Shown here: positions 559 to 20,000 of the stretch, piece after piece
Layout: each line of letters begins with the position of its first letter
Position numbering within the stretch: the stretch's first letter is position 1
Origin: an uncultured virus (IMG/VR IMGVR_UViG_3300028048_000125)
Lineage: Duplodnaviria > Heunggongvirae > Uroviricota > Caudoviricetes
IMG/VR virus record: IMGVR_UViG_3300028048_000125
DNA length: 20,000 nt
Reading direction: 5' to 3' (one strand)
Position numbers and translations under genes: made by a program
The notes under the pieces: generated by a model
Told to the model about the DNA's origin: nothing
Database searches by the model: none
Seen by the model: only the letters and a program-made list of their open reading frames with translations

Positions 559-933
559 TCAGGCGTTGATGATTGCTCTCTCGAAATCCTTGAGAGCAGC
601 GAGGATGTTGCGCTTCATTTCTTCGGCGCGGTCGGAGCAGCACTCAGGGCTGCACCCATTACTTACTGTAGCACGCTGTTTGATGTCACGCGAAACGCGC
701 ATCTGGACATCATTCGTGTCGAAGATGACGATGTCATTGTCACGCAACAGCGCGTTACGAAGATGGCCAATGTAGCTGTGACCATTGCGGATAATGCGAA
801 TACGCGCATCTTCCACATCATAGCCACCAGTTTCAAGGGCCCGCTTCAGCTTGTCAACAGTGGTGTTACCGTTGATGGCAAGCTTGTTGGTTCTGACAGA
901 CTTTACGAGGAAAGTCACTGTCTTTTCGCTCAT
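559..933 (-). CDS. Putative ubiquitin-like (beta-grasp) protein with Cys-containing C-terminal extension
   Basis: TVTFLV...TTVDKLKRAL...IRIIRNG...LRDNDIVIF matches the Ubl pattern; SD GGAGG; start overlaps the E1 stop; no terminal Gly-Gly. Confidence 0.6.
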   Translation of the reverse strand: MSEKTVTFLVKSVRTNKLAINGNTTVDKLKRALETGGYDVEDARIRIIRNGHSYIGHLRNALLRDNDIVIFDTNDVQMRVSRDIKQRATVSNGCSPECCSDRAEEMKRNILAALKDFERAIINA

Positions 934-1841
934 TAATTACCTCCTTGGGGTGTTGTGAGCATGTGGGTTAACGGTACTGACTTGAACGTGTTCTCGTCCA
1001 GTACCACTTCGTTGTAACGACACGTCTGCCCCTTGCGAGTGGGGAAATCGCTCAGAGTTCCATGCGTTACCCAATGTACGAACATTTCCATCATCTTAAT
1101 AGCGACAGCACAATTGGTGAGCGCGACCTGGTCGTGCTTCGGTGCAACAATTGTACAAGCGATCTCATCGGGTCGCTTGTCACGATCAGGACGGATGTTG
1201 TCAAACAGCTCCGGGAGATTCGGATCCAAAGCTCTACCCTCCATCCTTTCGTAAATGCTGACCTCACCAGTTGTCTTTTCGTTTCCGCCATTGATAACCA
1301 AAATGTTATTGAAGGCCTCGGCGTACATCGAGATCTCATAACGGGTTTTTGCGTTATCAACGCAGATGAAGATAACAGGAATGTCCATTACATACATACG
1401 ATTGCCAATCAGCCGATCGGAAAGACAGAGATCATCGAACGTTTTTGTATTCTCTGCGTTTTCTTCCGGATTCTTAACCGGTATAATGTTCCCGATATTC
1501 TGCGGCGTAAGATAACAATTGTAGCCGTCCAGTTTAATGTTCCGCAGGAAAGTCTTGCGGATCATCTTCTCCTGCAGGTCGAGCATACGCTGCATCATCT
1601 TATTGCCAGCCCCTGCACCCTGTCGGATCGCATTGTGGGGATCAAACGTATCCCCATCGATCAGGGTGATGCTGTCAACAATAGATGGCAGTGCGCATTT
1701 GCCTGCATTAGTCATGAATGGCGAAATGTCGATACTGTTCTGCTCAAGGAAGTCTAGGCACATACTTGCACAGCACTCTGACAAGAGCTGTGTCACGTAG
1801 CCGCCTATCCCTCCGCAGCCTACAACGTAAAGCCTCAGCAC
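933..1841 (-). CDS. ThiF/MoeB/E1-like adenylating enzyme
   Basis: VVGCGGIGG nucleotide-binding loop, LIDGDTFDPHNAIRQ, ICVDNAKTR, INGGN, candidate catalytic Cys in RPDEIACT. Confidence 0.92.
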   Translation of the reverse strand: MLRLYVVGCGGIGGYVTQLLSECCASMCLDFLEQNSIDISPFMTNAGKCALPSIVDSITLIDGDTFDPHNAIRQGAGAGNKMMQRMLDLQEKMIRKTFLRNIKLDGYNCYLTPQNIGNIIPVKNPEENAENTKTFDDLCLSDRLIGNRMYVMDIPVIFICVDNAKTRYEISMYAEAFNNILVINGGNEKTTGEVSIYERMEGRALDPNLPELFDNIRPDRDKRPDEIACTIVAPKHDQVALTNCAVAIKMMEMFVHWVTHGTLSDFPTRKGQTCRYNEVVLDENTFKSVPLTHMLTTPQGGN

Positions 1842-3208
1842 TCCTCATCCTCCTCGTCTTTCGGATTAGCATGCTCTGCCTGTGCTGCCAGGATGGTCTC
1901 ATATGCCTGCTTCAGCGTGGTCAGCCATGTGTTCACGGTATCATCGGACACACACGGCGTATCGGAATACGCGGACGCCGCTTTCTGAAGCAGATAGCAC
2001 AGAGACTCGACATTGATATCATTGCCAAGTGCATTTCGCTTATCTACGATATTGAAGTCCGGTCGCAAGTCCATCAGCCCTTCGAAGATCTGTCTGGCTT
2101 CTTCGTCCTCCAGATCCTTCAGTACCGTTTCACCGGTCATCATATCTTCGATCGAGATAAGAACATCCGTCTTGTCGAGACTATCGACAATCATAATACC
2201 TGTGGTCATCTCCAGAGGTCCTCGAACGGCCGGATCTGTGAAGACATCAACCAACATGGCAGCTGTATCACTGTCGTTGAGAGCATCGAGTATGGCATTC
2301 TTGAGCTCTTTGGTTGAGTCCACGGTAATCTCTGAGGCTGTAGTACCTGTGATATCATCTGCATAATCTGACTCCCATGCACCACTTGACCAGCCGCCGT
2401 ACCATCTGCTGCCGTACCAGTCAGCACCATACCAGTTGCTTCCTCTATAGGTGTTGTACCAGCTGGAATAACCGTAATCAGGATCGTAGGTGTAACCTGC
2501 ATAGTTGTCTGCTGGCTTGTAATGACCCGCAGGCAGGGTACGTTGTGAGACAACGGCGCCATTGTTGCCGTAGACTTTGACTGTCGCGGTTGGCTTGCGA
2601 TAGGATTGGCGCTTAATTGTTTCAACCCACTCCTGCACAGGCTCATACACCTGTGTGAAGTCGACATCCTCCAGAACATCTTCGATGTCCTGATCTTCCT
2701 GCTGGCTCGGGAAGAAGACGGTGCACTTGATCTGAGATACCAGACCGTTGCGCAGGCCAAACACGATGTGCAGGCCATGTTTAAACTGCTGATCGTTCAG
2801 GTCTGTGCCGCTCCAGAACGCACCCATCTCAGGATGCGTATGGATGCTGCCAAGAAGGGCATACCCTTCCGGCATATCTTTTCCATCATCGTAGAAAGAC
2901 ACAGAGGCACCGCTGCCATTCTGTTCCGGTACTTTGACAGCCCACTTCTTTTCTTCTGTGCTGTAATAGAGACTGTAGGCGGTCTCCATCTTGGGGAATT
3001 CGTGGATTGTCCCCAACACCTGCTTGAGAAGGTCTGCCTGCATCTTGGCGCCTATCCAGCGAGGACCATGGAACTTGTCTGTATCCAGTTCTTTACTAGC
3101 ATAGGTTTGCAGATCTTCAAGGTTCTTTGGCTTAACCCAGCCATCGAGACACTCACTAATCAGTCGTACACGCACACCGTCGTTACCGACTACATAATCT
3201 TTACTCAC
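1835..3208 (-). CDS. JAB/MPN+ (JAMM) metallo-isopeptidase with long C-terminal extension
   Basis: Upstream Glu (KMETA) and GSIHTHPEMGAFWSGTD = H-x-H-x7-S-x2-D; followed by a Y/W/G-rich linker and an acidic helical region. Confidence 0.9.
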   Translation of the reverse strand: MSKDYVVGNDGVRVRLISECLDGWVKPKNLEDLQTYASKELDTDKFHGPRWIGAKMQADLLKQVLGTIHEFPKMETAYSLYYSTEEKKWAVKVPEQNGSGASVSFYDDGKDMPEGYALLGSIHTHPEMGAFWSGTDLNDQQFKHGLHIVFGLRNGLVSQIKCTVFFPSQQEDQDIEDVLEDVDFTQVYEPVQEWVETIKRQSYRKPTATVKVYGNNGAVVSQRTLPAGHYKPADNYAGYTYDPDYGYSSWYNTYRGSNWYGADWYGSRWYGGWSSGAWESDYADDITGTTASEITVDSTKELKNAILDALNDSDTAAMLVDVFTDPAVRGPLEMTTGIMIVDSLDKTDVLISIEDMMTGETVLKDLEDEEARQIFEGLMDLRPDFNIVDKRNALGNDINVESLCYLLQKAASAYSDTPCVSDDTVNTWLTTLKQAYETILAAQAEHANPKDEEDEEC

Positions 3209-3395
3209 AGCGGTTCTCCCGTTTCAGTGCACTTGCAATGCATGCCTGAACATCACGCGACAATGTGAAGTTCCTGGTCACGTCCAGTGCGCTCTCGAAA
3301 CATTTCTCAAAATTGTGTTCTGTCAGCATAGGAAGCTTCGTAACCTGTGGAAGCACCTTCTGCGGACGTTTGCGTTGTTTGATCGATTTAATCAT
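3201..3395 (-). CDS. Small hypothetical protein (64 aa)
   Basis: Fills the gap between the E2-like and JAB genes, overlapping both by 8 nt. Confidence 0.55.
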   Translation of the reverse strand: MIKSIKQRKRPQKVLPQVTKLPMLTEHNFEKCFESALDVTRNFTLSRDVQACIASALKRENRCE

Positions 3396-4329
3396 TCATA
3401 TCCATCCCAAGGAATCTATCCGCCGGCATGATCTCTGTGAACTTGAAAGCTTTCATGGATTCCAGATCAGAGAAGACTCTGGCAAGCCTAATCATATGAA
3501 GGATGCTGCTTCCGTTATGCGAATACCGGCTAAGCAACGCCTCATATTCGTCAACTTTCGGCAAATCTTTGTATGCACGCTCGGCTGAAAGCTTATCTCT
3601 GTCGTCCAGCAGATCATAATTGAACTGCGAGTTGAAGAAGCGTTGATAAGTCAGCTCGATTGCCACAGCTTCCGTTACTTTGACTCCTGGTGGTACGTCA
3701 TAACTTGTATCGCCCCAACAGATATTACCGCTGTCAAAGATATTCGGGAAAGGCAGATGACATACCTTGGTCTTCTCAAGGTCGTTCATATGTTCAGGTA
3801 CTGCCACCATCATTACCTGATCAGGTACATTGGCAGCTGTAAGCTGAACCCTGAGCCACATGCGAGGATGATAAATATGCAACCTCTGATCAACACCCTG
3901 GAGATCCATCTCGAACTGGGTAGGTGGGATCTCCACAGTGATATCTTTGGCTCCGGCATCCAGTACACACCACCGAATGAGTGGATACTTCAGATTCGGT
4001 GTAATGGCGATCTTCTGACCTTGCAGCAGTCTCTCGGCAAACGCATCAAAGAAGACATCTTGAATGTCTTTGATGTGATAGCGTGCAACGTTATCACCCA
4101 GAATGCGCAACACCTGCTCTTTGGTTGAGTCTTTAATGACCGTGATATGTTCTTTGTCTCCCTTCAGCGTTGGTACCACTCGCGTGATAAATTCATCCAC
4201 TGTCATCTCTTCCAGAGAATCAAAGTGAACGGCCGTAACGACGCCTCCATGCTGATGGAACAGATCGGACTGTCTATCTACAAGGTGCATAAGACCTGTA
4301 GGAAACGTGCTGTCAATGTCACCGATCAT
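3388..4329 (-). CDS. Prokaryotic E2-like conjugating enzyme (Prok-E2 family D / PRTRC protein B-like)
   Basis: HLPFPNIFDSGNICWGD with candidate catalytic Cys, downstream FFNSQFN; operonic with JAB and E1. Confidence 0.75.
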   Translation of the reverse strand: MIGDIDSTFPTGLMHLVDRQSDLFHQHGGVVTAVHFDSLEEMTVDEFITRVVPTLKGDKEHITVIKDSTKEQVLRILGDNVARYHIKDIQDVFFDAFAERLLQGQKIAITPNLKYPLIRWCVLDAGAKDITVEIPPTQFEMDLQGVDQRLHIYHPRMWLRVQLTAANVPDQVMMVAVPEHMNDLEKTKVCHLPFPNIFDSGNICWGDTSYDVPPGVKVTEAVAIELTYQRFFNSQFNYDLLDDRDKLSAERAYKDLPKVDEYEALLSRYSHNGSSILHMIRLARVFSDLESMKAFKFTEIMPADRFLGMDMND

Positions 4330-6277
4330 TTAGTAGTTCCTTAAATTGTTGTTCGTTTATGATTTTGATCCCTAGCCTTTCGGCTTTGGAACGCTTGGAC
4401 CCGCCACCCTCGCCAGCCAGCAAATAAGAAGTTGAAGATGAAACCGATGACACAAACTTGCCACCGTGATCTTCTATCAGCTTCTTAATCTGATCCCTGC
4501 TCTGCGAAAGTGTCCCAGTAATGCAAAATGACAGACCTGTGAGTTTTTCGCTGACAAGCTCAGTCTTCACCTGCTCCATACAAAGACCCAGCAATGACAG
4601 ATCATTGATTAGGGTTGCTTTATGTGGACTGTGAATACTGATAAAGATGGAACGAGCTGTGATCTCGGCAAAGCCTTCAATCTCTGCAATCTCAGGAATA
4701 GAAGCTTTTAGCAACGGAAGCATAGACCCGAAATGCTTTGCTACGATCCTTGCATTGGTTGTACCTATGCCATCGATACCTATTGCGCACAGAACACGGT
4801 CGAAAGGCTTCTGCTTCGACTTTTCGATCTCAGCGAGCACAGAGTCTGCTTTCAGATCTTTGCTAATACCAGGAAGCTGGAGATCTTCCTTTGTTAGCTT
4901 GTACAGATCCGCCGGGGAATGCAGCTTACCCTTCACGATAAGCGCATGGATCATGGCGTCAGCCATGCCCCGTATGTCCATACACTGCCTGCTTACGAAA
5001 TAGCAGATCTCTGCCTGCAGCTTCGCAACACAGTCGTCATTAGGACACAGCAATGCGGCCCCATCACGAACAAGCGCAGCTCCACACTCTGGACAAAGCC
5101 CCGGTATTGGAACCTCGGCACCACCCATTGACTCAACGACATGGTCGAGTTGAGGGATAATCTCTGCTGCCTTATAGACAGCCACCATATCGCCGAGCTT
5201 AAGATCCATCTCTTTGATGTAGTCGATGTTATGCAGACTGGCATGGGTCACAGTCGATCCGCACAGACCAACCGGATCCAAGACAGCCACAGGTGTCAGT
5301 GTGCCTTTACGTCCGACTTGCCAAACGACATCCTTCAGCTCTGTAACAGCTTCTACCGGTGTAAATTTGAAGGCAATGGACCATTTAGGATCATGTACAC
5401 CCTCACCCAGCTCCAGCCGTTTGGCTCTGTCGTCTGTCTTGATAACAGCCCCATCAATTGCATACGGGATGTTTGCTTCATCAGACTTCAGGGACATGAT
5501 CACATAATATGCGAACTCACCCGGATCGGCCATACGATTGGACACAAAGTTCATCTGTGGCGTCAGGAACCCATTCTCCTGCAGTATGTTGAGCATATTG
5601 CACTCTGTACCTGTGTTCAGCCCTGGAATATCATACGCATAGAATGTGAGCCGTCTGCAGCGCGTGACTCTGGGATCTTTGTTTCTAACGCCGCCTGCTG
5701 CGGCGTTACGCGGATTGGCGAACAGTGGTGCTCCTGTAACCTGGCGTTCGAGATTCAGCGTCTCGAACTCATGCTTATGGATAACCACCTCGCCACGAAC
5801 GATCAGTTTTTCCTCTTTGATTTTCACCGGGATGGACTTGATCATCAACGCATTCTGCGTAACATCTTCGCCAACATCCCCATTGCCACGAGTCGCTGCC
5901 CGAACCAGCATATGGTTCTCATAGAACAGGACCAATGTTAAGCCGTCCAGTTTAGGCTGTACGACATAACCTTCACCAGCTAACGCCAGCGTCCGGTCCA
6001 CGAAACGATGAACCTCGTCAGCCGTAAACGCATTTGCCAGTGACAGCATCCGTTGCGGAAATGGAACCTTGTCAAAGCTGCTTACCGGATGACCTCCTAC
6101 ACGAGAAGTCGGGCTGCTCGGCAGCTTGATCGATGGATCCGCTTCTTCCATCTCTTTGAGCCTCCGCACAATTGCATCATAGTCTGCATCGGACATGATG
6201 GGTGCGTCGAGCTCATGATAGGCCCTCTCGGCTTCGAGTGCCTTACTTAGCAGTGCCTTGTAGCTGTCTTGCTGCAT
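4319..6277 (-). CDS. ligA: NAD-dependent DNA ligase
   Basis: SDADYD, MLSLANAF, KLDG adenylation motif, TRGNGDVGEDVT, NPRNAAAG, C4 zinc finger (CPEC...CPNDDC), HhH repeats, C-terminal BRCT (FCITGTL...GGK). Confidence 0.98.
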   Translation of the reverse strand: MQQDSYKALLSKALEAERAYHELDAPIMSDADYDAIVRRLKEMEEADPSIKLPSSPTSRVGGHPVSSFDKVPFPQRMLSLANAFTADEVHRFVDRTLALAGEGYVVQPKLDGLTLVLFYENHMLVRAATRGNGDVGEDVTQNALMIKSIPVKIKEEKLIVRGEVVIHKHEFETLNLERQVTGAPLFANPRNAAAGGVRNKDPRVTRCRRLTFYAYDIPGLNTGTECNMLNILQENGFLTPQMNFVSNRMADPGEFAYYVIMSLKSDEANIPYAIDGAVIKTDDRAKRLELGEGVHDPKWSIAFKFTPVEAVTELKDVVWQVGRKGTLTPVAVLDPVGLCGSTVTHASLHNIDYIKEMDLKLGDMVAVYKAAEIIPQLDHVVESMGGAEVPIPGLCPECGAALVRDGAALLCPNDDCVAKLQAEICYFVSRQCMDIRGMADAMIHALIVKGKLHSPADLYKLTKEDLQLPGISKDLKADSVLAEIEKSKQKPFDRVLCAIGIDGIGTTNARIVAKHFGSMLPLLKASIPEIAEIEGFAEITARSIFISIHSPHKATLINDLSLLGLCMEQVKTELVSEKLTGLSFCITGTLSQSRDQIKKLIEDHGGKFVSSVSSSTSYLLAGEGGGSKRSKAERLGIKIINEQQFKELLNDR

Positions 6278-6308
6278 CGAAATGAATCTCCAGCGGTTTG
6301 AAATACTT
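6243..6308 (-). CDS. Predicted exon 2 of the reverse transcriptase (KYFKPLEIHFDAARQLQGTAK*)
   Basis: In frame with exon 1 if the intron ends at G 6309 (...ATGACAG|AAG); stop at 6243-6245; overlaps the ligA start by 35 nt. Confidence 0.6.
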   Translation of the reverse strand, partial: KYFKPLEIHFDAARQLQGTAK

Positions 6309-6420
6309 CTGTCATGATTATATACCAGGCGCTGCCTGGAGCCAATCTTCCTGCTTCAACTTCAGCGAGTACTCGCTGAATCCACAGGCACTTCGGGCCT
6401 GACCGGCCCTGCATTCTTCA
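6309..6420 (-). ncRNA. TnpB omegaRNA scaffold / element right end (5' boundary approximate)
   Basis: GCCTGTGGA...GAAGCAGGAA motifs typical of TnpB 3' ends; perfect 20-nt palindrome TTCAGCGAGTACTCGCTGAA (6361-6380); terminal hairpin GATT..CCAGGC-AGC-GCCTGG..AATC just before the end. Confidence 0.72.
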
Positions 6421-7480
6421 AATTGATTGCGGCATTGAGATCGCGGTCGATGACCGCTCCACAATGCTCGCATTTATACACACGTTCACTTAAATCGATA
6501 TGTGGTTTCACAGCACCACAGGAAGAGCACCTTTTGGTTGATGGGAAGAACCTATCAACCTTATGGTATTCAAGTGCCTTGTATTTGAGCTGCTGTAGGA
6601 TCATTCCCATCATTGAGGCATTAAAGGATCGTCGTAATGACTTGAATTGCGCTTTATCCTTCATTTCCTGTATGTGCAGATCCTCTGTTACAACAATCCC
6701 GTGGCTTTTGGTGATCGCTGTGGTGAACTTATGTGTCACATCCTTACGGATGTTATTAATCTTGTTTTGAATACGCTGTTTCTTGAGAAGAGCTTTGGCT
6801 CTGTTGTTGGAGCCTCTTTTCTTCCTATTGATAGCTTGTTGAGCCTTCTTGAGCTTGGCATCAAGCTTTTTGAGGCTTTCAGGAGCATCGCAAATGGTGC
6901 CATCAGATGCAACCGCCACATGTTTCAATCCGACATCTATGCCAACTGCAGAGTTCAGATTATTTGTCTGCGGCAGCGGATCTGGAAGCTCATATTGTAT
7001 GGAGACATGCCACTGACCAGCATAATGACTGACAGTGTAACTTGTTATCTTGCCTTCAAATCTAGGGCGTTCAGCAAGTCTCACTCTGCCTATATTTGGA
7101 AGGGATATTCTGTCTCCATATATTCTAGCTTTGTCATTAGCAACTGTAAAGCTATCCTTTCTACCTTTCTTGTGGAATGTAGGATACTTTCCAGTGCCTC
7201 TCCAAAGATTTTGAAATGCTTCGCCAAGATTCTTTATGGCGTTCTGTTGTGGACTACATGCTATTTCATGCGCCCACTCTGGCTTTGCTGCTGTCCATAT
7301 ATTGGATAATATACTAAAGGATGGTTTCTGCTTAGAGTGATCTTCCATCCAATCAGAATACATGGACTTCCACTTATCCAGTGCCCAGTTATACACGTAT
7401 CGTGCGGTGCCTGCTGTCTTTTTCAGCATCACCTCTTGCTCCTTTGTAGGATACATGCGTATTAGATGGGCTCTATGCAT
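6362..7480 (-). CDS. tnpB: TnpB RNA-guided endonuclease (IS200/IS605/IS607 superfamily)
   Basis: N-terminal IRMYPTKEQ...ARYVYNWAL, RuvC-I GIDVG, RuvC-II TEDL, zinc finger CSSC/CEHC, RuvC-III DRDLNAAIN; catalytic D-E-D intact. Confidence 0.96.
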   Translation of the reverse strand: MHRAHLIRMYPTKEQEVMLKKTAGTARYVYNWALDKWKSMYSDWMEDHSKQKPSFSILSNIWTAAKPEWAHEIACSPQQNAIKNLGEAFQNLWRGTGKYPTFHKKGRKDSFTVANDKARIYGDRISLPNIGRVRLAERPRFEGKITSYTVSHYAGQWHVSIQYELPDPLPQTNNLNSAVGIDVGLKHVAVASDGTICDAPESLKKLDAKLKKAQQAINRKKRGSNNRAKALLKKQRIQNKINNIRKDVTHKFTTAITKSHGIVVTEDLHIQEMKDKAQFKSLRRSFNASMMGMILQQLKYKALEYHKVDRFFPSTKRCSSCGAVKPHIDLSERVYKCEHCGAVIDRDLNAAINLKNAGPVRPEVPVDSASTR

Positions 7481-7589
7481 TTCTTTTATACCTTTGGTAG
7501 AATTTCGGACTATATTGTCCTTATTTACTATAGCATCATCGTCAAAACAAGATTTGAAGAATGACTTAGATTGGTTGTATAACCATGGT

Positions 7590-7883
7590 TCTGTTCAACA
7601 GGTATCGCTACTACCTGCCAGGTTTCCAGTTGTCAAGCTGGACCACTCCCATGCTTTCGCATGGGCACTGACTATATCATTTACCTATTCCTAGGTAAGA
7701 GCACTTCCCCTTTCCAATAGCTTGATCGGGTACTCCTGTTAAGGATAGTCGATGAACCTTCTTTGCGGCGGGTTTCTCTCGCTGCAAAGCTCGGCTTAGG
7801 ATTAGCATGCACTGCTGTGTTTAGCCTTCCCTAAATTAACTTTCTTGTTCGATAAGGATTACTCCTTAAAGGGACTCTTACGA
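7590..7883 (-). ncRNA. Group I intron catalytic core of the RT intron (3' boundary approximate)
   Basis: R-like GTTCATCGACTA (P7 5' strand 7746-7750), S-like ATGATATAGTC (7670-7674), P9 CCCATGC-GAAA-GCATGGG (7648-7665). Confidence 0.88.
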
Positions 7884-8825
7884 ATCCTGAATCACGGGGT
7901 CATTCCCATCGAATCCTTCATCCGACTGAGCCCTGCAAGCATTCATATAGCGGACACAACCGACAACCTTTGCCCACTGCTTCCAGTCGTCATACTGAAT
8001 CTCACCACCTTGGTTGATAAAGACCTTGTAGTACAAATTGCAGACAGCCGCCCGTGTATTCTGTCTGTAACGACGGCTGGCATTATAGCCCTTACCATCC
8101 TGACGGATGACGATACCGAGCTGTCGCGGACTGGAATGCGGAGCACCTCTGAATACACAACGATCTTTCATGTGGTTAAGCTCCAAGCCTAATGTGTTCT
8201 TGATAATGGTTTCAACACCCATAAGGAACCAGACGAATGGATTCTTGCTGTGAGACTCGTGTGTCTTTTTCAGCATCTCTTCCATCTCTTTGCTTACATG
8301 CTCCAACGAAAACAGCATATCATCAGCATATCTGGTATAGACGAACCCGTGCTCCTTGGCATAGCTGGCAATCATGTTGTCAGCGTCGAACATGGCGATA
8401 TTCGTCAGCATCGGGCTAGCAGGGCCGCCTTGCGGTATCTGGCCATTGCATACGCAAACGCGCATGATACCGTCGACATACGGCTTAGCCACATAACCGT
8501 CCAGCATCTTCGCAGCTGCCATCGACGGCGGACAATTGTCAAAGAACGACTTGACATCACAGCTCACCCAGCAACGGGGTGTCCTTGAGTGTTTGACGAT
8601 CGATGTCATGCAGCCACGATACGGGATGAACCCATGCGCACATGCGGATACTTTAATAGTGCCTGCCCTGATCAAGGCATACAGATAATCCAGCACGTCC
8701 TTCTGCACTTCTTTAAGGGCATCATTCGGGATTTTGATATCCCTGAATTCACCCGGCGTCTTCTTTGGAATACGCCCATCCCGCCACGTTGTGTCAACAT
8801 GATTGAGATCGTAGAGGTTTAACAT
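7884..8825 (-). CDS. Retron-like reverse transcriptase, exon 1 (about 335 aa when spliced)
   Basis: IPKK..GEFRDIKIP...LKEVQ, AHGF, CDVKSFFD, IPQGGPASPMLTN, YTRYADD, QLGIVI; no maturase/endonuclease extension. Confidence 0.92.
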
Positions 8826-9352
8826 TGGAATACCTTAAATGTTATACGGTTAAAGACCACGACATAGAGGAGGGTATCTATGTCCCTGAATTTGAGAGTA
8901 TAATCGTAGAAAACCCCTCCACTACGACTATCAAGAAAGCAACGATTGAGATGATACCTGTGCTGAAACCACGTGGAGGCACAAGCATCACAGAGACCAG
9001 TCTTGTCTTTCTACACGAGGCCGAGAAATCCGACAAAGAATCCAAAGACCATATTATCATAGCTATAGACCCCAATAGGTGGAAGCTATGCTATAAGACC
9101 AATAAACTGGCTATTCTGGATCCTTGCGGCTTTCATGGTCACATGCTGCTGGTTGTTGACAAGAGCATGGAACAGATACTAATAAAAGCCGACGACCGCA
9201 AGCTATCCCTGCAGTTCAGCAACAATAAGCTTACGATCGCCGGTTGTCAGCGCTCTGCACTTTTGCGCTCGGCTATCACGAGACAGCTAAGCGCCGCAGA
9301 CGCTAGAATGTCATCATCTGAATATCGCACAACTGATCCCACATCTGAGTAA
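8825..9352 (+). CDS. Hypothetical protein (175 aa), only credible plus-strand gene
   Basis: Open for 175 codons across a region with no long minus-strand ORF; TTG start with GAGG upstream; protein-like composition; start overlaps the RT ATG head-to-head. Confidence 0.6.
   Translation: MEYLKCYTVKDHDIEEGIYVPEFESIIVENPSTTTIKKATIEMIPVLKPRGGTSITETSLVFLHEAEKSDKESKDHIIIAIDPNRWKLCYKTNKLAILDPCGFHGHMLLVVDKSMEQILIKADDRKLSLQFSNNKLTIAGCQRSALLRSAITRQLSAADARMSSSEYRTTDPTSE
8852..9170 (-). ncRNA. Candidate structured RNA leader / RT-associated ncRNA
   Basis: Consecutive stem-loops at 8861-8884, 8900-8931, 8952-8990, 9003-9036, 9058-9090, 9142-9169; three A.C mismatches on + become G.U pairs on the minus strand. 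Confidence 0.5.
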
Positions 9353-9914
9353 GGATCTGCTTATTAGATTCCACAGGCAAAAGGTCTGTATAAGGATCCA
9401 CTACGATATTACAAGATTTCATCAGTCGCTTGAACGGCGGAGGCTGACCCACCATCTTACCAGCAAGTGCTTCCAGCTCAGGCAGCGTGCAGATCTTATC
9501 TAGGTCTTCCGCTGGCAGTGCTAACCTCGACATTGCCAGCTTCATAATCAGTGGCAGATCATGCACATATCCCGGTACACAATCCGCCATATCGGTCAGA
9601 GCACTGGCCTGGAATGCCGGATTATAGCTGAATGCCGTATTCTCTTTGAACAATCTGTTCACTTCCTCCGAGAACTCCTCAGCCTGTAGTCCATACGTCG
9701 ACAGTGTATGCATCGTTATTCTATGGTAATCAATACCATTCAATGCGCAGCTTGCCGGAGCAGAGTAAAAGACAGTCCCGGATTCGTGTGGTGTTTTGAT
9801 AATCTCATAGGAGACCGCCAGCAGGCAGTCATCCGGATTGACACCAGTTGTTGCTGTTGAAAATAGCATGGGTGGCCGCTTCAACAGCGACTGCAGATAC
9901 TCACCCCACGTCAT
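9303..9914 (-). CDS. DnaQ/DEDD 3'-5' exonuclease-fold protein, catalytically degenerate
   Basis: LFSTATTG (cf. FDTETTG), YHRIT (cf. HGIT), SYNPAFQ (cf. HNxxFD). Confidence 0.6.
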   Translation of the reverse strand: MTWGEYLQSLLKRPPMLFSTATTGVNPDDCLLAVSYEIIKTPHESGTVFYSAPASCALNGIDYHRITMHTLSTYGLQAEEFSEEVNRLFKENTAFSYNPAFQASALTDMADCVPGYVHDLPLIMKLAMSRLALPAEDLDKICTLPELEALAGKMVGQPPPFKRLMKSCNIVVDPYTDLLPVESNKQILTQMWDQLCDIQMMTF

Positions 9915-13629: not shown

Positions 13630-14909
13630 CAGCTTTCACCTGCCAGCTTATCAATCAGATCCGTAGCAGGAGCCTCTTCTGGCAGACTTACTGGTACAGC
13701 CTTACGAATGCGCTTCTTGGTTACGGTCACTTCGACTGGTGTTTCAGGTTCTGCGTGGAAAGTGCCATCCTTCTTGCTCTTGAGATATGCCTTATAGCTG
13801 CTGAGATCCTTGATCTTGTCAATCTTCTGGTACACGTAGAGTGCATCCAGCGTCTTGCTGTTAGCAGGATCGAACAAGGCTGCCTCGAATTCCTCAGCGG
13901 GCACACTCTTGAGATTGAAGGTCGGACATGTCACGAGGCCGCTATCTGCAACCTTAACATCACAGATGTCACGGATCTCACCGACGCCTTTTTCAGGGTC
14001 TGCCAGACATTTGGCTGTTGCAAGTGCCCAGTCAAAGTGATGACCGTAGCCTGCCTTCTCGGTACCATACTTGTTCCAGCGGAACGCCACTTCGATCTTA
14101 CGGGCATCTGCAAATGACAGCTTGGTTGTTCTGAGCGTCAGGATTTTTCCATCACCTGATGCAAGTGCTTTATAGCTGGAGCTTATCATGCATCCGTCTT
14201 TGAACACCTGTGACTTGCCGCCAGTGACTGTCTTCTGCGGAGGGCCATATGCAGCGGCTGCAGCTTCCTTCTCCTGGTTAATGCATACGACTACCATTGG
14301 TATGTCACCAATGAGTGCACCCGCATTTTCGCAGAAGTATTTCATGAAGTGCGCCTTCTCATAGAAGCCTTTGCCAGCTACGCCATCGCTCTCAAGCTTC
14401 GACAGTGTATCACTGGCAGCTGCACCGCCAATAGAGTCAAGCCCGAGTATGATCGGAGTTTCACAACTCCCCATATGCTTACGATACATGGGGATGATCT
14501 TCTTGCAGATATGCTTGAATGCGCCGTCAAGAGTCAGATCCTTGATCACACTGAACCGCTCATAGACGTCTTCGCCATAGTTGGCCATAACACCTTCGAG
14601 CAGCGTGGGACTGATCTTGTCTTCGAGCTCATACAGGAACCCCAGACCTCCAAGTCCTCCGTTTTCTGGTGAGGCACAGACGTGACCCATAAGATCAAAC
14701 AGTAGTGGAGACTTGCATGCCTGAGGCATGCCGCTAATGGAATTGAATACTTTGATGCGCAGCCCTGTTGCACCGAACAGATATTGCTGCGCATAGTGAG
14801 CCAGAGGAAACCCGTACTGGTTCTCTTTAAGCTCCTTGACAGAGGTTACAATGCCCCCATCATCCTTGCGCAGCGCCTCCATCATAGAGTGGATTGCTGA
14901 TACGCCCAT
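13629..14909 (-). CDS. RecA/UvsX-like recombinase, divergent
   Basis: Walker A-like GMPQACKS, YELEDK, Walker B IILGLDSIG, VVVCINQ, TGGKSQVF; located next to SSB-like and polymerase genes. Confidence 0.8.
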   Translation of the reverse strand: MGVSAIHSMMEALRKDDGGIVTSVKELKENQYGFPLAHYAQQYLFGATGLRIKVFNSISGMPQACKSPLLFDLMGHVCASPENGGLGGLGFLYELEDKISPTLLEGVMANYGEDVYERFSVIKDLTLDGAFKHICKKIIPMYRKHMGSCETPIILGLDSIGGAAASDTLSKLESDGVAGKGFYEKAHFMKYFCENAGALIGDIPMVVVCINQEKEAAAAAYGPPQKTVTGGKSQVFKDGCMISSSYKALASGDGKILTLRTTKLSFADARKIEVAFRWNKYGTEKAGYGHHFDWALATAKCLADPEKGVGEIRDICDVKVADSGLVTCPTFNLKSVPAEEFEAALFDPANSKTLDALYVYQKIDKIKDLSSYKAYLKSKKDGTFHAEPETPVEVTVTKKRIRKAVPVSLPEEAPATDLIDKLAGES

Positions 14910-16361: not shown

Positions 16362-17024
16362 TTAGCCTTTCTGCGCTGTTCGCGCGTCGTGTAGTGATTG
16401 GACGAAGGGCGGCTCTTCCAGAATGGGGAGGCCGTCTGGGGTCCATTCAAGGGAGTCGAAAGTTTTCGCCTTCTTATCCCAATGTAGCATGCAGGATGAT
16501 TCTACACTAACCTTTACGTCAGTGATAAGAGAGCACATGCCCTGCAACATGAGCTTCTCAATGATAGGAATATGAGTTTGTAACTCATTGGGCCACAACC
16601 AGTAAACGAATTCGTCATGAATAAATGCGACCAAACGGTCAGCATATCCATTGTATACTAGATTCCAGCCGGCGAGCTTGGCTCCAAGGGCAACCTCTGC
16701 CTGAAACATATAATTCAGACTTGAGTTGAACGAACAGCGATCACGCATCTGACCACACTTCAATATAGCCATATACGCATGCTTTTTCTTGTCCTTTGGA
16801 TCCTCGTCTTCTTCTGAGTCCTCATCTCCCATCTGCCGAGTCATGCCGTAAGCATTGAAAGGAAGATCTGCACGTTTTGAGCGCAGCGGTATCTTATGCT
16901 GCTGCATTTCCGTGAAGGTCTCCTCCCAGGCTTTAACCATTTCCTCGGCTTGCTGCATAGTCAATTCAATGCCTTGACTACGGCAGTGTTGGTAGAATCG
17001 CAAAGCTTGCATTCCACCTGGTAA
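16362..17024 (-). CDS. polA: Family A DNA polymerase, exon 3 (LPGGMQ... to stop)
   Basis: Begins TTA CCA GGT GGA ATG right after intron G 17025; contains LNYMFQA and motif C LVAFIHDEF. Confidence 0.9.
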   Translation of the reverse strand, partial: LPGGMQALRFYQHCRSQGIELTMQQAEEMVKAWEETFTEMQQHKIPLRSKRADLPFNAYGMTRQMGDEDSEEDEDPKDKKKHAYMAILKCGQMRDRCSFNSSLNYMFQAEVALGAKLAGWNLVYNGYADRLVAFIHDEFVYWLWPNELQTHIPIIEKLMLQGMCSLITDVKVSVESSCMLHWDKKAKTFDSLEWTPDGLPILEEPPFVQSLHDARTAQKG

Positions 17025-17101: not shown

Positions 17102-18025
17102 TCAAAAGCCTAAATCTGGTTGTACATCCCAGCCATCGACTTCCGGAGCGGCCTCGTGGTGACTCATATCCGAGCTGGACGTGTCACTATGCGTTGCCCC
17201 TGACTGCGATTCCTCGCAGCCTTCGGTTCGGGTTAGCTTGTCAGCCTTTCCCGCTTCATTCCGCTCTTTTAATTCGGCTCTTTCTTTGCATAATTCAAAT
17301 ATAGCAGTAGCAGTGACCTGTTCAGTTTTTTGCATCTGTTTGCTCATCTTATGCAGCACCATATGGCAGTTCGCGCAAATTATAGCGAGATTAGAGATAT
17401 CATTGTTTGTGCGATCCATATCCTTATGGTGCACTACCAGCGCATCCTGATCGTCTGCAAAGCCACAAATCTCACAGACATCATGTCCCGTCATCACCTT
17501 TGCGCGATATCGAGATCGAGCTGCTTCTCGCATCTTCTCTGCATTAGCTGCGTAATATGCTCTACGCCGTGCATTTGTCTGGACTCGCGCTTCATCAGAA
17601 ATAGTTGTTTCCGTGTTTTGACCACCACCGGAACCCACACCTATTCTAACGGTTGGATCTCTCAATGCACGTTCGGCCATAACAGACTTCGAGCGATGCT
17701 TATGCCAGCAGTCATCGCATCTAAGCTTTGTCGTGCGTCCGTGAAATTCAAATTGCTTGCCGCAGTCTACACAAGTTAATATTTTAGTGGGAACTGTATG
17801 CGCTAATTGACATGCCGCACAACAATACTGTTTGGTCGGCTTACCGGCTTTAAGCTTGTATGTAATCTCTTTCCCGCAACCCTTACATACACCTTTATGT
17901 AACTCAAGTTTACTTAAGCGATACGCTTCTTTGCATCGACCAGAACAATACTTGTGTCGCTTGTTTGTGCGCTCAAATTCCTTGCCACAATACAGGCACT
18001 TTGCTATTTTGCTATACTCTTCCAT
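17102..18025 (-). CDS. HNH homing endonuclease with N-terminal zinc-ribbon repeats
   Basis: Three CxxC...CxxxC-type repeats, then CEICG...LVVHHKDMDRTNNDISNLAIICANCHMVLH; SD AGGAG (18031-18035) favours ATG 18025; last ~60 codons read through the ribozyme core. Confidence 0.92.
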   Translation of the reverse strand: MEEYSKIAKCLYCGKEFERTNKRHKYCSGRCKEAYRLSKLELHKGVCKGCGKEITYKLKAGKPTKQYCCAACQLAHTVPTKILTCVDCGKQFEFHGRTTKLRCDDCWHKHRSKSVMAERALRDPTVRIGVGSGGGQNTETTISDEARVQTNARRRAYYAANAEKMREAARSRYRAKVMTGHDVCEICGFADDQDALVVHHKDMDRTNNDISNLAIICANCHMVLHKMSKQMQKTEQVTATAIFELCKERAELKERNEAGKADKLTRTEGCEESQSGATHSDTSSSDMSHHEAAPEVDGWDVQPDLGF

Positions 18026-18037
18026 AAACACTCCTAA

Positions 18038-18109: not shown

Positions 18110-18381
18110 CTTTACATTTAATACTGTTCGCTACGCAGTATCCAGGATATACCTGCACATACTTTCATATGTGAATCGACTATGTAATCTACTCATTCCT
18201 GAGTAGGAGTGCTTCCACACGCTTGTGTGTACGTCTTACGACTAGTCTGTGAACCTTCCTGTAGCGGGCGGTCTGTCCATCTACAAGCTCGGCTGCAAGT
18301 AGCCATGGCTTTCACTTTAGGTTTCCTTGCAATTCACTGTTCTTTGCTCATACAGTCACCCGTATGAGGGCCAACAAATTT
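18110..18381 (-). ncRNA. Group I intron 1 of the polymerase (272 nt, no ORF)
   Basis: P1 GGCU/GGCC with U.G; P10 AAAUUUGU with exon GCAAAUUU (8 bp); GTTCACAGACTA and TTACATAGTC form P7 (18243-18247 / 18178-18182); P9 with GAAA loop (18156-18173); terminal G at 18110. Confidence 0.9.
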
Positions 18382-20000
18382 AGCCTTGGCGTCTTGGCGC
18401 TGTTTCTTTGTAACATGCTCTTCCAAAAACGCATTTGTTTTGGCGACCCACTCTGGATCGTCCTTATTGGACAGATCAGGTGTTATCAGCTTATTCATTA
18501 CACCAGCGAACCAACGATGAGGATCTATACCTGCATTAATAACATCAGCCATCACAGAATGACCAAATCTATCAATGCAAGATTGTGCAAAACCGCACAA
18601 TTCCACGTAACTGAAGTCCGTGGCACACAGAATTGCTCCCTTGGGAGGCGCAAACATATTCTTAATTGTCCACACCGGATCCCTCGAAGGAATTATCTGT
18701 ATTACCGGTTTATTGGCACTCGTTCTCCCGGTTCTTAATAATGAGGTATATCTGGGATGAACTTTACCATCAGCCTTCACATCTTCATGATTGAAGAAGG
18801 TGCTTTTGAATTTCTCCATGTGTCGGTACTTAGTATAGACATCCAGGAACGGATCCTTAATGCCCATATCATCTAACCGCCACTTGTCATTCAAAGTAAG
18901 CTTGTAGTCACCACCATCGGTCGTTGGCAGCTCTAGTCCAGGATTGTTATCCAGCAGATTCTTGTAATGTTGTTGCAAGAACGTTTTTGGTCCCACCTGC
19001 TTCTCGCTGCTTGTCCAATGCGGATTATCGTCTATAATGTCGCCTGCATACTCGATTGCATGTCCGAGATCATAGCCTTTTTCCTTCTTCGTCCCCTGCT
19101 GTTTGATCAGATCCTCCATGACATGCCCAAACAGCGCATTCATGACAATATCCTTACCAGCATCGAAGAAGGCATCCAGCCGATACTCTTCCATCATTGC
19201 ATCGAATACGGGCTTCTCTGCTTTGCGTATGTTCTTTGGCTTTTCTTGAGTCAGCCAATAACCCACGCTTTGTTCGAAGTCCTCAGTCTCATCAGCCACT
19301 CCTGCAAAGTTATACATGTACAGTAGCGCCATACGCATATTACCTTTGCACAGATTCAATGGCTTTTCCAGCTCCACTCCAGTCAGCTCCAGAAACTGCG
19401 TGGTCTGTTCTTCAACAAACCTCTTGTAGTCACCGTTCTCGTCCTGGTTCTTTTTATATGGATCCGGGAATCCGAATGTCAGCAGCTGGTTGCGATATTC
19501 ATCTTTAGCGGCCTGCAATTTATCCTCGAATGCCTTGTAGACTTCAGGATCCACATCAAAGCCGTTATAGGTGATATGCGCAAGCACTACCATGCCCTTT
19601 GAGTGCGCGACTTCAGTTGGCTGCTCTGGTACAGCTTCTGAGAGCGCCCAGGTGCTAACACAGTCCCACATCAGATAGATAGCCTGCTCCTGTGTGATAG
19701 GAGTGCCACGTCTAAATGTCAATCTGTGGGATTCTGGGTCATCCTTTTCGCCTTTATCAAGCTGAATACCAAGAATAAGTCTTGAACAATCTTCGAGACT
19801 ATAGTGATTGTATGGTATGAATCCTTTTGTGGCAATGTCATGCAGCTGTACGCGTATCTGCATATCCCTGACTCGGCCATATTCGATGGCGTCCATCAGT
19901 GCCTTCTCAGGATCCACATCGTTCAACACGTGCTCATCAAAACCCAAATTGAAATAAACCTGCCGAATCTCTTGTTTACTCAACTGGTTGATGAACACAG
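18382..20000 (-). CDS. polA: Family A DNA polymerase, exon 1 (5' partial)
   Basis: ExoIII-like YLMWD, VHPRY...RTGRTSA, motif A ATDFSYVEL, DPHRWFA, start of motif B RQDAKA. Confidence 0.93.

Follow-up and report, generated by a model that had tools for sequence, protein, structure and literature searches.

Why should the reverse transcriptase (RT) gene of an uncultured tailed phage be preceded by a long, hairpin-dense leader whose opposite strand holds an open reading frame (ORF)? The locus comes from the IMG/VR virus record IMGVR_UViG_3300028048_000125, of which we analysed a stretch of 20,000 nt (the window); it comprises an RT gene on the minus strand, its untranslated leader (8826..9302, minus, 477 nt) and an ORF on the plus strand (8825..9352), here called the partner gene. 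An inspection of the letters alone (the sequence-only reading) had proposed an undescribed system of an RT, a non-coding RNA (ncRNA) template and an antisense partner gene. One part of that proposal stands, namely a new RT family tied to a partner; the other, the ncRNA template, lacks support. The 477-nt leader is the complement of the partner gene, with no separate conserved ncRNA.

The opposite-strand ORF is a real, translated gene. It runs for 175 codons from the RT start codon, as first noted, its TTG start sharing base 8825 with the ATG of the RT. Divergence among loci follows codon position in the order 3 > 1 > 2 in 21 of 21 locus pairs, and third codon positions are saturated between loci (0.53-0.72 different). 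Seven single-base variants in other cattle-gut sequencing runs comprise six synonymous changes and one R>K, and within the window the AT skew becomes positive only at this gene. A profile search of 1.84 billion representatives returned 78 partner clusters at E <= 1e-3 (68 at E <= 1e-10), nearly all of them free-standing proteins of ~140-220 amino acids (aa) that match end to end; the 12 close clusters span 175-181 aa, and the family 175-207 aa with both start and stop encoded in the genome.

The gene is also tightly linked to its neighbor. The partner lies head-to-head with an RT of this clade in 11 of 11 distinct contigs that have upstream DNA (the window, L001, L003, L004, L083, L084, L085, L244, L246, L247 and L248), and in the eight loci measured the distance between the two start codons is -2 to +11 nt. 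When 244 RT loci were searched with the partner profile, including L087 (RT 32% identical) and ~230 loci of retron-type RTs, matches appeared only at close-clade loci and none beside other RTs. The sequence-only reading had held that finding the ORF unlinked to RTs would count against it; no such case occurs among the loci whose DNA was examined. Gene order is the same in six loci (window, L001, L003, L004, L083 and L085): two unknown genes, the opposite-strand partner, the RT and an NAD-dependent ligase. In G001, the contig of L248, a different gene (298 aa) stands downstream of the RT instead. Sequencing runs from the guts of cattle and sheep contain contigs of near-identical sequence: 20 rows hold part of the stretch, and 14 hold half or more of its sampled words; these come from 14 studies. 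Four of the rows are RNA libraries. Two genomes of the family are rated complete at ~176 kb, one with direct terminal repeats. The closest RT in bacterial or archaeal genomes is 36-37% identical over part of the protein, and GenBank phage records hold no close RT homolog (best tblastn match 32% identical, again over part of the protein). In large phages of the cattle and sheep gut, RT and partner form a two-gene module that is passed on vertically, and full-text literature searches found no description of such an RT/partner pair.

The two start regions are interlocked. A Shine-Dalgarno (SD)-like AGAGG for the partner (8812..8816, plus) lies inside RT codons 3-5, and an SD-like AAGG for the RT (8833..8836, minus) lies inside partner codons 3-4. 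The RT start has an SD-like site before it in eight of eight loci, and the partner a similar purine-rich one in five of eight. Since each ribosome-binding site falls within the first five codons of the other gene, each mRNA carries the complement of the other's initiation region.

The partner product is predicted to be a 175-aa all-beta protein with a C-terminal helix, matching no known fold. Its AlphaFold2 model, a confident one built from an 18-row alignment (predicted local distance difference test 82.5; predicted template modelling score 0.76), has a beta-rich body, the C-terminal helix and a disordered tail. The best match of the model had E 0.13 in the PDB (Foldseek), E 0.19 in BFVD and Z 2.9 over 48,161 chains (VIA-align), and the best PDB match of the sequence profile had E 0.98; the beta-propeller fragments that the ESM Atlas returned at 0.93-0.94 are a lead only. 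The window protein falls in no PADLOC, Pfam, PHROG or NCBIfam family, and in no known effector family. Fourteen diverse members likewise matched no Pfam family, and a fifteenth, a weak match of 377 aa, showed SurA_N domains only. The disordered C-terminal tail is rich in K and R (e.g. ...APKKRAKPARS) in L003, L083, L084, L085, L244, L246 and L247, but not in the window; it is encoded at the overlap with the convergent upstream gene.

In one relative the two genes differ in genetic code. The partner homolog of L248 (contig G001, 106.7 kb) is open only if seven in-frame TAG codons are read, there being no other internal stop; with these decoded, its alignment to the family covers 142 columns (hhalign 95.7%, E 9e-9). 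No TAG occurs in the RT, which is 10 nt away, or in the tiled neighbor genes. G001 is a TAG-recoded phage whose 40-100 kb region needs TAG read-through: coding cover there under code 11 and with TAG read is 0.64/0.95, 0.67/0.99 and 0.83/0.95, and two of its frames, of 1414 and 3042 aa, contain 51 and 48 TAG, respectively (pieces L251-L255). In the first 40 kb the corresponding values are 0.90/0.96 and 0.89/0.92; this part uses the standard code, the RT's partner gene excepted. A scan of 100 of the 106.7 kb turned up neither a suppressor tRNA nor any other tRNA gene, in a record estimated to be 57% complete. The G001 partner belongs to the phage's recoded class and the RT lies outside it, and the partner is translated in this recoded relative. 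We take the presence of TAG in the partner but not in the RT as a sign of different translation regimes for the two genes. Stop-codon recoding has been proposed, in the outline given in 10.1101/2021.08.26.457843, as a regulator of late phage genes. The seven in-frame TAG of the partner resemble those of the TAG-rich genes elsewhere on the contig; unlike those genes, the partner stands alone in a standard-code block and faces an unrecoded RT.

The RT gene appears as an ORF of 315 aa (7878-8825, minus; RVT_1, E 1.8e-18). It is predicted to encode an active RT, probably of the retron lineage, 335 aa long after removal of the intron described below. The catalytic residues are invariant across 23 family members, and YADD (codons 166-169), PQGxPxSP and the motif A aspartate are all kept. 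The best 25 of 64 PADLOC matches are retron RT models of many types, with E from 8.5e-34 to ~1e-23. Among NCBIfam models retron St85 is best, at 117 bits against a cut-off of 235, followed by Ec67 (96 bits) and TIR-retron (87 bits); Drt2 and group II intron RTs reach ~53 bits, and every curated retron cut-off (235, 450 and 600 bits) is missed. A PDB search with the family profile gave Ec67 (6.5e-32), Kva2 (6.9e-30) and Ec86 (~1e-27), and lower down group II RTs (5e-17), Drt2 (3e-13) and AbiK (8e-5). Tested for membership in the Drt2 family, the window RT scores 52.8 bits with NF041746 against a cut-off of 390, the match being confined to residues 129-188. No RT of a diversity-generating retroelement (DGR) is among the PDB or NCBIfam matches.

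NAxxH and VTG are the canonical motifs of retron RTs, and their positions here were taken from alignment to Ec67 and Ec86. At the first site the family has S/T-x-x-x-H (S-I-V-K-H in the window) where Ec67 has N-A-Y-K-H, only the H being invariant; at the second it has I/Q-L-G (Q-L-G in the window) where Ec67 and Ec86 have V-T-G, only the G being invariant. The sequence-only reading, which had noted that the RT lacks both motifs (SIVKH, QLG), was right on this point. From its sequence affinities we place the RT in what is probably a separate clade beside the retrons, outside every described type.

What, then, is the hairpin-dense leader? All three of its RT-sense frames contain mixed TAA, TAG and TGA stops. 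The earlier observation that no long sense ORF lies upstream of the RT is thereby borne out, and a recoded sense gene in this place is ruled out, as all stop types occur in every frame. The stems first picked out by eye (8861-8884, 8900-8931 and 8952-8990) were all found in the minimum free energy (MFE) fold or the terminator scan, along with further helices; the longest local hairpin in the MFE helix list has 23 bp, five of them G-U pairs (9189..9243, minus), and each homolog has helices of 15-27 bp. The 8-bp hairpin at 8861..8884 (minus) is followed by a U-rich run and makes a terminator-like site just upstream of the RT ribosome-binding site; it falls in the partner codons for D-I-E-E-G-I-Y-V. 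The recurrence of AGACCA was also correctly located, at 8854, 8994, 9046 and 9096, four copies in 250 nt of the six on the plus strand in 20 kb. These copies (8854-9101, plus) occupy two different partner codon phases, and because the word is absent from six of seven homologous regions we read it as a feature of the window lineage or as chance.

The folding of the leader exceeds what its composition and its coding require. In the window the RT-sense strand folds to -171.8 kcal/mol (z -6.66) and the opposite strand to -129.4 kcal/mol (z -2.21) when compared with dinucleotide shuffles. A sliding scan showed that the minus strand folds ~10 kcal/mol better throughout the window, with the largest strand difference at the leader (-48.7; other places reach -45.6 and -38.8). 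Codon shuffles gave z -4.9 to -8.3 in five of five loci (-6.64 in the window). Synonymous shuffles, which keep the protein, gave RT-sense z of -4.69, -5.15, -4.88, -5.46, -5.27, -2.18, -3.02, -5.97, -3.55, -2.87 and -3.63 in 11 loci, a mean of -4.24 (window -4.69); each z comes from 14-16 shuffles, so that single values are rough. Among 17 coding segments taken in operon sense as controls, from the window and from five homologous loci, z averaged -1.83 (range -0.13 to -4.58), and the leaders differ from them with p = 1.2e-4 (one-sided Mann-Whitney). Scoring of both strands against shuffles, the check proposed with the sequence-only reading, thus came out in favor of excess folding in 11 of 11 loci. 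The strand specificity it had claimed is strong in the window and only a trend in the family, where the ORF-sense z averages ~-3.1 across the 11 loci and is less negative than the RT-sense value in nine of them. Since the excess is present in lineages whose third positions are saturated, each lineage must either have maintained it or formed it anew.

The stems do not keep their positions from locus to locus, which speaks against a retron-like ncRNA of fixed fold. The sequence-only reading had itself named a lack of stem conservation as a ground for refuting it, so its own yardstick tells against a defined ncRNA. In codon-anchored alignments the structure conservation index (SCI, RNAalifold) was 0.18-0.41, including the closest pairs (window/L001 and L003/L084); by these values the ncRNA template of the sequence-only reading is unsupported. 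Folds of close relatives retain 0.57-0.68 of their pairs and those of distant ones 0.37-0.54, compared with 0.26-0.51 when slid by 1-3 columns and with an estimated ~0.59 expected from identity alone. Retention is no better than identity predicts, so there is no sign of compensatory maintenance, and no covariation or position-conserved helix was found across the leader homologs. Some helices are built from conserved codons (GGAUCC, supplied by two D-P motifs, pairs with itself) and others vary by lineage. In long ungapped stems, G-U and A-C mismatches number 20 and 13, a difference that is not significant. The leader matched no Rfam family, with only two noise rows at E <= 5. The seven strain variants, of which four are unpaired in the predicted fold, two keep a pair and one breaks a pair, are too few to decide.

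The account that we tentatively prefer, though we give it slightly less than an even chance of being right, is one of generic, position-free structure that protects the leader and limits sense-antisense annealing, together with expression of RT and partner that is antagonistic and separated in time. Apart from the partner ORF, every long gene of the window is on the minus strand, that of the RT, and operon transcription would therefore pass through the partner gene in antisense and would be untranslated there for ~480 nt. Dense hairpins in the partner's synonymous sites could then serve as generic insulation of this untranslated stretch, guarding against Rho or RNases and against annealing with the partner mRNA. 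RT-strand transcripts and partner mRNA would mask each other's ribosome-binding sites; the overlap of these sites suggests such mutual masking, and with it an antagonistic coupling of the two genes in time.

Several observations weigh against this account. No sigma-70-like site was found on the plus strand upstream of the partner, although that consensus may not be the host's. Conservation of synonymous sites rises only a little in RT codons 1-15 (0.53 versus 0.42 overall), and codons 16-60 show no rise. A control segment of the UvsX-like gene (14082-14609, minus) reaches a synonymous-shuffle z of -4.58, so strong folding is not unique to the leader; a stretch near these coordinates has a dinucleotide-shuffle z of -2.91. 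We found no comparable antisense-embedded gene by which the generality of insulation could be gauged, and the RNA runs were seen as contigs, which carry neither transcript strand nor timing. Finally, RTs of the retron lineage normally use an ncRNA encoded in cis beside the RT gene, and in cis no RT-strand RNA other than the leader is untranslated, the RT overlapping the ligase gene downstream.

This last point leads to templating of the kind known from retrons and from DRT2, a defence-associated reverse transcriptase (DRT) system. The RT would bind and reverse-transcribe its own leader, and the resulting complementary DNA (cDNA), of partner polarity, would serve as a regulator or decoy or as an additional copy of the gene; the hairpins would provide for recognition and priming by the RT, and would evolve fast, like retron msd stems. 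We consider this unlikely, yet with an appreciable chance of being true. The RT is most closely related to retron RTs by PDB profile, NCBIfam and the best 25 of 64 PADLOC matches; the excess folding sits in synonymous sites of all 11 loci with an RT-strand bias in nine; and, beyond the 15-27-bp helices of each homolog, the MFE folds of six of seven loci can be read, with no statistic attached, as having a closed central domain of ~130-215 nt. As outlined in 10.1101/2024.05.08.593200, the expressed ORF of DRT2 is likewise opposite in strand to its ncRNA. Against this, neither a position-conserved helix nor covariation appears even at ~65% DNA identity (SCI ~0.4), the G-U and A-C counts do not differ significantly, Rfam is silent, and the RT lacks NAxxH and VTG. 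The ORF has its start, an SD-like site and its stop in the genome and therefore exists without need of a cDNA, and the run contigs, which show such joints poorly, contain no cDNA-suggestive joints. The stronger version, in which the RT copies the leader into partner-polarity DNA and this cDNA, rather than the promoter-cramped genomic locus, drives or gates partner expression, seems to us very improbable; if true, it would be a virus-borne relative of the gene-from-cDNA logic of DRT2, with a complete and conserved ORF and in the service of a phage.

The hairpins might also act in single-stranded DNA, as a site of strand initiation or recombination that the gene pair merely hosts. Both strands do beat shuffles in several loci (ORF-sense z of -4.3 to -5.9 in L003, L084, L085 and L244), and the module's neighbors serve replication and repair (ligase, UvsX-like recombinase and PolA, the family A DNA polymerase). 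However, G-U pairs, less well tolerated in DNA, tip the balance to the RT strand in 9 of 11 loci; there is no GC-skew turn at the site and no origin-like skew; and iterons or conserved repeats are absent and hairpin positions not conserved, all of which leaves a DNA element quite improbable. Slightly less so, but still improbable, is an ordinary divergent gene whose folding excess is functionless, the product of drift or of quasi-palindrome mutation where one strand is untranslated. Such a gene would fit the mild structure of the coding controls (mean z -1.83, one at -4.58) and the lack of conserved structure, but not an excess that recurs in 11 of 11 loci despite saturated third positions and that separates them from the controls at p = 1.2e-4. 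A DGR, with the upstream region as a template repeat copied to a variable repeat elsewhere, comes to mind since the RTs of gut crAss-like phages are usually DGR RTs, according to the part of PMC12386605 that treats them. The window holds no matching direct repeat, and the RT has no DGR match in the PDB or NCBIfam; we regard this explanation as extremely improbable. In the complete 176,044-bp genome G002 it is ruled out, as the 701-bp upstream region has no second copy there (14-nt chance match only), and a repeat search of four other family records gave one 15-nt chance match only.

The RT gene itself is interrupted by an IStron-type intron of 1575 nt (6309..7883, minus) composed of a 5' group I ribozyme, a TnpB gene and a short 3' part. 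The ribozyme (7893-7648, minus) matches the full Rfam model Intron_gpI (RF00028) with 61.9 bits against a gathering score of 50, and the TnpB gene (6362-7480, minus) has OrfB_IS605 (2.7e-23), Cas12f1-like_TNB (1.6e-17) and HTH_OrfB_IS605 domains. There is no TnpA, only 168 nt separating the ribozyme match from tnpB. The intron is preceded by U and its last base is G. Its extent follows from the RT family: 22 homologs extend ~20 residues beyond the window stop, among them P0002 (96% identical, 338 aa, ...DPVIQD-KYFKPLEIHF...), and since this C-terminal continuation is encoded at 6308-6243 the intron must be 6309-7883. Exon 1 (7884..8825, minus; codons 1-314) ends in IQD like the uninterrupted P0002, and the translation of exon 2 (KYFKPLEIHFDAARQLQGTAK, then stop; 6243..6308, minus), which overlaps the ligase start at 6277, matches the P0002 C-terminus and the family consensus. 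Splicing would restore the frame, ...IQD joined to KYFKPLE as in P0002, to give the 335-aa RT. Both of the corresponding suggestions of the sequence-only reading hold up, since the RT is cut by a self-splicing type of element, after codon 314 at 7884, and its frame is intact, continuing across the intron into exon 2.

Contigs of RNA runs contain the 7884|6308 joint. Run X8 has one such contig with a 72-nt side, and run X18 has one, with 0 and 1 differences per side, plus three intron contigs with 0 differences. These RNA-library joints fit splicing without proving it, because the DNA run X2 has an intron-less RT allele (5-6 differences). With this allele in a cattle-gut run, the IStron is polymorphic in the phage population. 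IStrons combine a group I intron with an IS200/IS605 element, as the class is outlined in PMC4227781 and 10.1101/2023.11.20.567912. The present element is like them in its 5' group I ribozyme and TnpB and in being absent from some RNA-library contigs of the RT; it differs in having TnpB alone, with no room for TnpA, and in having a phage RT as its host gene.

The remainder of the window is a phage replication and repair block, which also includes the UvsX-like recombinase and the NAD-dependent ligase. The family A DNA polymerase gene is recognized by domain matches in two pieces (18334-19998 and 16362-17012, minus) split by a second group I intron (18391-18156, minus; Rfam 57.9 bits), within which lies an HNH endonuclease ORF (17102-18031, minus). 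Three neighboring genes at 933-4329 (minus) encode ThiF (E1-like), prokaryotic JAB and prokaryotic E2 family D domains, and by these domains look like a ubiquitin-like conjugation set within a phage. The gene next upstream in the operon (203 aa; 9303-9914, minus) overlaps the 3' end of the partner gene by 50 nt with its own 3' end. It has a syntenic homolog in L244 (2976-3602), and its size ranges over 203-208 aa. The 203-aa protein had no match in PDB, Pfam, PHROG, NCBIfam or PADLOC. Proteins of this group share an N-terminal motif, F-S/L-T-A-T-T-G-V/L-N-P, which we take to resemble the first motif of DEDD exonucleases, other residues standing in place of the acidic ones.

Compared with known systems, the locus is like a retron in having an RT most similar to retron RTs, with an intact catalytic core, and a structured RT-strand RNA directly upstream together with a tightly linked second protein gene. 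It is unlike one in that the RT scores far below the curated cut-offs (117 versus 235 bits for St85) and lacks NAxxH and VTG, the leader does not have the conserved ncRNA fold of an msr/msd, and the partner is on the opposite strand and of no known effector family, with no effector in the same operon. Moreover, the two genes belong to the syntenic core of phage replication modules and not to a defence island. The resemblance to DRT2 and its Neo product, as far as that outline of the system goes, is the ORF opposite in strand to the RNA upstream of the RT; this RT is, however, not of the Drt2 family (52.8 bits versus 390), and the partner ORF is complete in the genome with start and stop, not 'never-ending'. 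The hybrid RNA of type VI retrons is described, in the summary of 10.1101/2025.10.22.683967, as one region that is both a structured RT-associated RNA and a coding sequence. The leader region is likewise both structured and coding, although by that summary the type VI coding sequence lies on the template strand, whereas here it is on the opposite one.

For the phages, the finding means that an RT probably of a lineage known for bacterial defence enzymes belongs here, in syntenic position and by vertical inheritance, to the replication module of ~176-kb gut phages, paired head-to-head with a protein of unknown fold. The locus is a testable case of the use of a retron-type RT by a phage, and the partner gene is a natural example of synonymous sites that carry strong folding of the opposite-strand RNA. 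The recoded gene inside an unrecoded block, in the TAG-recoded relative, bears on how stop-codon recoding times phage gene expression.

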